Shown here: one piece after another, positions 1,369-1,907 of the stretch
Numbering within the stretch: the stretch's first letter is position 1
How the letters are laid out: every line of letters begins with the position of its first letter
Origin: a virus
Lineage: Duplodnaviria > Heunggongvirae > Uroviricota > Caudoviricetes
Virus record (IMG/VR): IMGVR_UViG_2695420613_000016
Strand: one strand, 5' to 3'
Length of the DNA: 4,170 nucleotides
Program-made: the position numbers and the translations under genes
Notes under the pieces: generated by a model
Seen by the model: only the letters and a program-made list of their open reading frames with translations
The model's database searches: none
Told to the model about the DNA's origin: nothing

Positions 1369-1907
1369 CTATTGTTGAACTGGATTAAACCAGTAATTCT
1401 CTATTGCTCTTATTGTTACCATCGGATGATTGCCGGGGGTTATTTTAAGTTCGGGAGGAAAAGGCTCTCCATCAGCAGCCATCATTGAGTATGTGAAATC
1501 CGCCGACGCAGTCCCTTTCATGATAATTCCGAATTTTTCAAGTAATGAGAGCAGTTCCGGTAATCCTGTGTCATCTGAATAACTTTCCTCATAGAAAGAA
1601 GCGATTGCCGCAGGAGATGACAGTTCTCGCTCTGCAATTTTTTTGTAGTTTTCCAGAATTCTTTTTTTGAATACTTTTCCTCGACATGAAAACCCATCAC
1701 CGAGGCAATCCGCTTTGCAGTTTCTTCAGTATTCTGGTTGTTTGTTACCGAAACAGAGTACAATCCGGTAAACGCATCGCGCACATTACGAGCCATATTA
1801 TCAATGTATTTCTTCGTTGCAGATTCTAATTCAACTTCGTTCAGACGTTGGTGAAGTGCATGTGCTGCAATTTCCTGGATTTCTTTTAGTAAATCTTTAA
1901 ATTCCAT
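1369..1907 (-). pseudogene. Hypothetical ~179-aa protein interrupted by an apparent -1 frameshift at a 7-nt homopolymer; as sequenced the in-frame ORF is 1518..1907 (129 aa)
   Basis: N-terminal frame from ATG 1907 (RBS GGAG 6 nt upstream) reads MEFKDLLKEIQEIAAHALHQRLNEVELE... Offset by -1, a second frame is open from 1725 to a TAG at 1371..1369 and reads protein-like (RILENYKKIAERELSSPAAIASFYEESYSDDTGLPELLSLLEKFGIIMKGTASADFTYSMMAADGEPFPPELKITPGNHPMVTIRAIENYWFNPVQQ) with no start codon or RBS of its own. Two plus-strand T7 runs (1662..1668 and 1638..1644) lie in the overlap. Confidence 0.45.

Follow-up and report, generated by a model that had tools for sequence, protein, structure and literature searches.

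Genomic context of the locus

The window, i.e., the whole 4,170-nt stretch of DNA analyzed here, is 99.9% identical to a lambdoid prophage of E. coli O157:H7 and represents an early-left operon of the dicBF type from an EHEC prophage. Its genes and other features, together with the positions that bear on the argument below, are collected in Table 1. The gene at its center is split between two reading frames and fills the slot that is taken by ydfC in the Qin prophage of E. coli K-12. K-12 YdfC itself was considered as a homologue and rejected: it shares the operon slot and is unrelated.

Table 1. Features of the window discussed in the text (aa, amino acids)
Feature	Position	Strand	Remarks
cI-like repressor	2988–3389	-	divergent from cro-like and YdaT genes
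RelB/RelE pair (RelE/ParE–RelB toxin–antitoxin)	2482–2960	-	between cI-like repressor and ydfA
ydfA/DUF1391	2049–2204	-	
ydfB	1919–2047	-	
Ribosome-binding region	1908..1925	-	GGAG 7 nt 5' of ATG 1907; upstream sequence …AACGGAGTTAAAG ATG
129-aa ORF	1518..1907	-	ATG at 1907, end at 1518; RefSeq WP_000394511.1, 'hypothetical protein'; read by alignment with intact homologues
Codon 7, CTA (Leu)	1887..1889	-	Pro in 74/77 family members
A7 run 1	1662..1668	-	TCA AAA AAA GAA = S K K E; in frame, kept in intact homologues
A7 run 2, lesion	1638..1644	-	intact alleles have A8, ACA AAA AAA ATT = T K K I
Stranded C-terminal domain region	1369..1637	-	−1 frame, 89 codons IAERELSSP…WFNPVQQ + TAG
50-aa ORF MKGTASADF…	1369..1521	-	called as a gene by some pipelines (P0122; P0227, 659 contigs)
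Codon 163, ATG (Met)	1420..1422	-	AGG→ATG, R163M; Arg in 12/15 relatives
Convergent 61-aa CxxC…CxxH gene, zinc-ribbon-like	1146..1331	+	WP_001133046.1, phrog_10133; 37 bp from stranded-frame stop
DicF sRNA	758–809	-	Rfam RF00039, 76.9 bits, full length; upstream of dicB
dicB	384–572	-	
DUF1482/ydfD-like gene	196–387	-	

Several observations concern the remainder of the operon. At the site of the RelB/RelE pair, neither the Qin locus of K-12 nor the related prophage loci that we examined show a toxin–antitoxin pair. Two near-identical palindromes of ~40 nt, at ~2390-2430 and ~3427-3465, share the pattern ACAATAAAAAACTGTT…AACAGTTTTT(T)A(T)TTGT, flank the block formed by the repressor and RelBE, and look like the left and right operators. 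A 1-nt indel in the T run at about 2405 distinguishes the window from strain PV15-279. Between relE and ydfA, the early-left transcript would also carry a terminator-like hairpin (2448-2463, minus strand), consisting of TCCCTCTTTCGAGGGA followed by T7 (the A7/T7 run at 2441-2447); it may act as a tL-type terminator that is under antitermination control.

One gene in two reading frames

The first-pass annotation had described a gene split over two frames, and all of its coordinates hold when recomputed. On the minus strand, the −1 frame is free of stops from 1725 to 1372 (118 codons), up to a TAG at 1371–1369, and the region where it overlaps the 129-aa ORF contains two A7 runs on the coding strand (T7 on the plus strand), at 1662–1668 (run 1) and 1638–1644 (run 2). 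Both runs sit in the A_AAA_AAA (X_XXY_YYZ) phase with respect to frame 0, the start index of each being 2 modulo 3. When the two frames are joined, the product is 179 aa long and ends 37 bp from the convergent zinc-ribbon-like gene, just as had been anticipated; its predicted junction peptides are …EFWKTTKKIAER… or …YSKKRILENYKK…. An equally stop-free stretch of 89 codons past the junction arose in 71 of 20,000 composition-matched shuffles (p≈0.004).

Aligned with the intact homologues described below, residues 1–90 of the 129-aa ORF are authentic, and residues 91–129 (LQSENCHLL…NSELS) are an out-of-frame tail. The same alignment presents the 50-aa ORF, which has no Shine-Dalgarno motif before its ATG at 1521, as the mere tail of the stranded C-terminal domain.

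Intact homologues and the position of the lesion

The suggestion that the −1 frame reads like a genuine protein is borne out by the homologues: the joined protein matches intact proteins encoded by single ORFs, and the full-length matches (P0001–P0009) cover 100% of the joined query. The closest of these, P0001, is likewise 179 aa long and 91% identical to the joined protein (E = 8e-98); it is followed by P0002 (179 aa, 82% identity) and P0003 (180 aa, 77%), and then by P0004–P0009 (177–186 aa, 61–68% identity). The converse pattern, a 129-aa ORF conserved as an independent protein with a second frame that is not conserved, was not observed among the homologues.

At the junction, the intact proteins all read …KYSKKEFWK(T/I/M)(T/A)K(K/R)IAER…. 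As the homologues thus read EFWKTTKK·IAERE, the join, and with it the lesion, is placed at run 2 and not at run 1. Hence, the proposal that both A7 runs are slippage sites is upheld insofar as both lie in the overlap and in phase, but the lesion is confined to run 2, run 1 being an ordinary in-frame Lys-Lys. DNA alignment leads to the same position. In the six closest intact loci (L002–L005, L007, L017), A8 (ACA/GCA AAA AAA ATT) is found where the window has A7, and this is the 8-nt run yielding a single ORF for which the first-pass annotation had advised looking. The farther intact loci (L008–L013, L014, L015) have no homopolymer at the site of run 2, and read GCC AAA CGC ATC, GCC AAA AGA ATC or similar. 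Since the intact loci have either A8 or no run at all at this site, and since run 1 is in frame, the ancestral state was a single ORF from which the allele in the window has lost one A. By these alignments, joining the frames restores the ancestral protein of 179 aa.

The intact single-ORF homologues of 177–186 aa share the site between ydfA/ydfB and dicF/dicB in related prophages. The neighborhood common to the homologue contigs comprises a repressor, DUF1391/ydfA, in some cases ydfB, the gene itself, and then DicB or KilR, DUF1482 and an exonuclease. Among complete E. coli genomes, an intact 186-aa form (WP_000394524.1) occupies the same position in porcine O139:H1 and ETEC strains, as does an intact 177-aa form in TUM9812; the 186-aa type is free of indels in 24 complete genomes. 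Strain A19 has an intact P0003-type A8 gene at this position, for which RefSeq places the start 13 codons farther upstream.

Fixation, spread and age of the A7 allele

An 85-nt probe spanning both A runs was searched against 5,426 complete E. coli genomes. The allele is present in 386 of them (about 7%), and 384 of these carriers are identical to the window over the entire probe; the single variant that we examined, from strain E105, carries a SNP located between the two runs, and its product remains 129 aa long. Probes edited to A8 or A6 had no exact match among the complete E. coli genomes. The A7 state is thus fixed among carriers that include EDL933, TW14359, O103:H2 12009, O121 and O111:H11 strains and isolates from pigs, pork and fish. 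The identity of 384 of the 386 carriers, with neither A8 nor A6 versions, argues against both sequencing error and phase variation. The only A6 record that we found (GCA_008122345.1; L027) differs from the window over 1.9 kb by three 1-nt gaps and no substitutions, a pattern that suggests homopolymer assembly error.

The 269 nt of the stranded region are at least 99% identical in the 386 genomes, and an 885-nt segment shows 0–2 nt differences across O157:H7, O103, O111:H11, O121 and livestock isolates. Such near-identity across serotypes implies that the allele is young and has moved horizontally. Its youth in turn accounts for the intactness of the stranded frame, which has acquired neither stops nor further indels and is therefore uninformative as to selection. 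In the databases, contigs with the frameshifted allele number more than 2,000, as against ~25 for its A8 relatives; this excess could reflect selection, but could equally reflect heavy sequencing of EHEC.

Few substitutions have accumulated on this background. The window differs from strain SMN152SH1 at a single position, 1888, within codon 7. The resulting P7L change arose after the frameshift, as P0215 (287 contigs) is frameshifted yet keeps the Pro; A15E was added later, again on the frameshifted background, in the large sub-lineage P0214. Past the junction, R163M is the only substitution specific to the window, and is a non-conservative change at a conserved basic site. The residues L7, Y34 and M163 are never seen among 77 relatives. 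Taken together, P7L, A15E and R163M hint at relaxed constraint, the events being too few for statistics among copies that are at least 99% identical.

Domain architecture of the protein

The N-terminal ~55 residues form a module with the signature MEFKDLP..Q.IAA…NVRDAF..LY and two predicted helices (pLDDT about 80). Profile searches against PHROGs recovered phrog_1363 (E = 2.4e-37, residues 1–92) and phrog_2151 (E = 3.8e-29, residues 1–83), both matching the N-terminal part only. With these 'Ybl81'-type families the protein shares its N-terminal ~55–90 residues and its operon position in lambdoid prophages; in contrast, no relationship exists between the Ybl81 C-terminus and the C-terminal domain of the 179/186-aa type. 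For that C-terminal domain, we found one distant relative, the 119-aa P0136, among 1.84 billion representatives. The two parts of the protein meet close to the site of the frameshift.

More generally, at least six unrelated C-termini occur in fusion with the N-terminal module, which is also found alone, in proteins of 69–76 aa. Its carriers, related to window positions 1745-1907, include P0022, P0048, P0052, P0080, P0104, P0114, P0130 and P0132. This distribution suggests a cassette-like mosaic, in which a common anchor would be combined with swappable effector domains.

Sequence searches of Pfam, NCBIfam and the PDB returned nothing significant, and PHROGs offered only families of unknown function. 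AlphaFold2 models built with 9 and 77 sequences reached a pLDDT of 50 and 55, respectively, with only the first ~50 residues confidently predicted, and a Foldseek search against the PDB gave no match with E < 1. Two weak profile matches of the C-terminal domain were to fibronectin-III and MBG repeat proteins, and are thus spurious. The phage collection contained only relatives of the N-terminal module, at no more than 40% coverage, and the gene is not mentioned in the literature that we searched.

A frameshift-truncated allele

In light of the above, we consider it highly probable that the split arose recently, through the deletion of one base from an A8 tract prone to mutation, and spread clonally with the EHEC prophage segment, giving a frameshift-truncated allele by ordinary mutation. 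Two observations bear directly on this: intact single-ORF orthologues exist at the same position, and comparison with the closest intact alleles maps the lesion to one specific indel. Briefly, one A has been lost from the A8 at 1638–1644, turning ACA AAA AAA ATT into ACA AAA AAT TG, a deletion of the kind that ordinary replication slippage is expected to cause in a long homopolymer. Normal translation thus yields the 90 authentic residues followed by 39 out-of-frame ones, with the stop at 1518, and does not reach the 89-codon C-terminal domain in the −1 frame. The mutation was carried by a prophage segment that spread nearly unchanged through O157:H7, O103, O111, O121 and non-EHEC strains.

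The clonal spread of the truncated allele implies that the C-terminal domain is dispensable for that prophage. The truncated product may retain the activity of its N-terminal module, since other proteins, of 69–76 aa, consist of that module alone; the term 'pseudogene' may thus overstate the loss. Alternatively, the whole gene may be decaying, as P7L and A15E hit conserved sites.

The first-pass annotation had left the choice between a pseudogene, a sequencing error and programmed −1 frameshifting. The first of these survives, in the form of a truncated allele with intact orthologues; an error is contradicted by the 384 identical carriers, and a programmed event by a split that is not conserved and has no stimulator. 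The allele resembles the homopolymer-indel pseudogenes of prophage accessory genes in its one-base loss from an A tract, its intact orthologues in the same place, its tail running to the first stop and its clonal fixation. It differs from them in that RefSeq carries it without a pseudogene flag, and in that the N-terminal module survives and might act alone.

Slippage at the A7 runs and competing explanations

Some −1 slippage into the C-terminal frame is nonetheless to be expected, given the phase of the two A7 runs and the strong avoidance of A7 by E. coli genes (PMC4066793). In E. coli reporters, unstimulated A_AAA_AAA supports 0.405±0.021% −1 frameshifting, as against 0.8% with the IS911 stimulators and 25% with the IS3 pseudoknot (Sharma et al., PMC4066793 Table S3). 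Efficient transcriptional slippage in E. coli has been reported at runs of 9 A or T (PMC5009743). Only in the A7 allele could run 1 serve as a second site of −1 slippage. Together, the two in-phase runs would probably furnish, by spontaneous slippage, at most ~1% full-length protein, as an accidental product.

A stimulator would be a Shine-Dalgarno-like motif lying 6–17 nt before the run, a stable hairpin or pseudoknot after it, or both. No AGGA, GGAG or GAGG was found in the 22 nt that precede run 2. The best hairpin 3' of run 2 has a free energy of −10.6 kcal/mol over 40 nt, and the 60-nt fold 3' of the run (−14.6, against a shuffle mean of −11.0) is not significant (z = −1.3). Hence, of the properties of a programmed −1 site, the heptamer phase is present, whereas neither a stimulator nor conservation in diverged homologues is found. 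For transcriptional slippage, which calls for 9 A/T or for a shorter run with a hairpin stimulator, the run of 7 nt falls short.

These values bear on the alternative that the deletion is real but that ribosomal −1 or RNA-polymerase slippage provides a small and physiologically meaningful supply of the 179-aa protein, in the manner of a savior indel. Both runs are in the X_XXY_YYZ phase and either leads into the C-terminal frame, which is itself still intact; the ~0.4% frameshifting of unstimulated A_AAA_AAA (PMC4066793) and the indels in the G7 run of herpesvirus thymidine kinase, which come with low-level frameshifting (PMC5009743), offer a mechanism and a precedent. However, there is neither a Shine-Dalgarno stimulator nor a significant structure, and the run has 7 nt as against the 9 A/T of efficient transcriptional slippage (PMC5009743). 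Moreover, the sole lineage-specific change in the stranded frame is the non-conservative Arg→Met at a conserved basic site, the youth of the allele accounts for the intact frame, and nothing shows that the protein is needed. We therefore regard this explanation as unlikely. The parallel with the G7/G8 savior indel of herpes simplex thymidine kinase (PMC5009743) extends to a homopolymer indel that still allows trace slippage read-through; unlike in that case, there is here no selective agent and no known need, and the read-through is only predicted. A more specific version, to which we give a distinctly low probability, holds that the indel was itself selected as it silences a costly C-terminal domain, with the heptamers leaking ~0.4–1% full-length protein upon prophage induction. 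If true, a selected, leaky savior indel would explain the spread of the allele over many EHEC serotypes with the stranded frame intact.

An evolved system of programmed −1 frameshifting or transcriptional realignment, making the 129-aa and 179-aa proteins in a set ratio, is very improbable. It draws on a slippery heptamer in phase, a protein-like −1 ORF that exceeds the 0-frame ORF in length, and residence in a prophage, recoding being common in prophages (PMC4066793). Against this, only one near-clonal allele shows the split, the closest relatives being A8 single ORFs and the farther ones single ORFs without a slippery run; there is no Shine-Dalgarno motif and the hairpin is weak (z = −1.3). 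The 39-codon tail in frame 0 is not seen in any homologue, and the gene is absent from the conserved-motif candidate clusters of PMC4066793. Comparison with established programmed −1 sites (A_AAA_AAG in dnaX, A_AAA_AAG/A_AAA_AAA in the IS3 family and G/GT of the lambdoid tail chaperone) likewise yields an in-phase A_AAA_AAA in a mobile element, but no conserved stimulator, single-ORF homologues, and an expected frameshifting of ~0.4% (PMC4066793) rather than tens of percent.

Still less credible is a phase-variable (contingency) switch, in which the length of the A tract would toggle the C-terminal domain within populations. While A8, A7 and A6 versions are all present in databases, and the 186-aa type includes a separate A7→A6 change at run 1 (L026), close isolates show no polymorphism in tract length, with no length variants of run 2 among the 386 complete genomes; the A6 record (L027) looks like an assembly error, and the A8 alleles, at 82–91% protein identity, are sequences in their own right and not switched versions of one allele. 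Finally, we give almost no credence to a sequencing or assembly error, or to two independent genes (129 aa, and 50 aa from ATG 1521): homopolymers are error-prone on some platforms and the 50-aa ORF is called by some pipelines (P0122, P0227), yet the same A7 sequence recurs in 384 complete genomes from many laboratories and platforms, including EDL933, TW14359 and O103:H2 12009, and the 50-aa ORF has no Shine-Dalgarno motif and covers only the tail of a domain that all intact homologues carry joined to the upstream part.

Implications for annotation

The truncated-allele reading calls for a correction of the annotation: the 129-aa WP_000394511.1 and the 50-aa ORF that is occasionally called are what remains of a single 179-aa gene. 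The last 39 residues of WP_000394511.1 do not represent genuine protein sequence and should be kept out of the seeds of protein families; out-of-frame tails of this kind may be present in phrog_1363. The loss of the C-terminal domain is tolerated in a segment that circulates among O157, O103, O111 and O121 strains. The locus can also serve as a negative control for frameshift-prediction pipelines, as it combines an in-phase slippery heptamer and a long −1 ORF without being programmed. The phenomenon as such is ordinary and raises no new biological question.

Variation among related alleles

Some further observations were made on relatives of the gene. P0221 represents a frameshifted allele with a different N-terminus, and is either a recombinant or an independent A8→A7 event. 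In L026 (Logan SRR9326098), an allele of the 186-aa type, the A7→A6 change at run 1 results in the 126-aa truncated form P0017, which reflects either a second independent homopolymer frameshift in the family or faulty assembly. The intact 186-aa homologue WP_432757426.1 (L019, positions 1501-2061 of NZ_OZ547217.1) is named 'RNA-binding protein' by RefSeq, near-identical proteins being named 'hypothetical'; no match in Pfam, NCBIfam or the PDB backs this name. The 3' neighbor also varies by allele: the window has the 61-aa CxxC…CxxH gene, and L005, L007 and L010 have an unrelated 80-aa gene that overlaps the 3' end by 20–44 nt. These differing convergent neighbors point to a mosaic breakpoint right at the stop of the gene.
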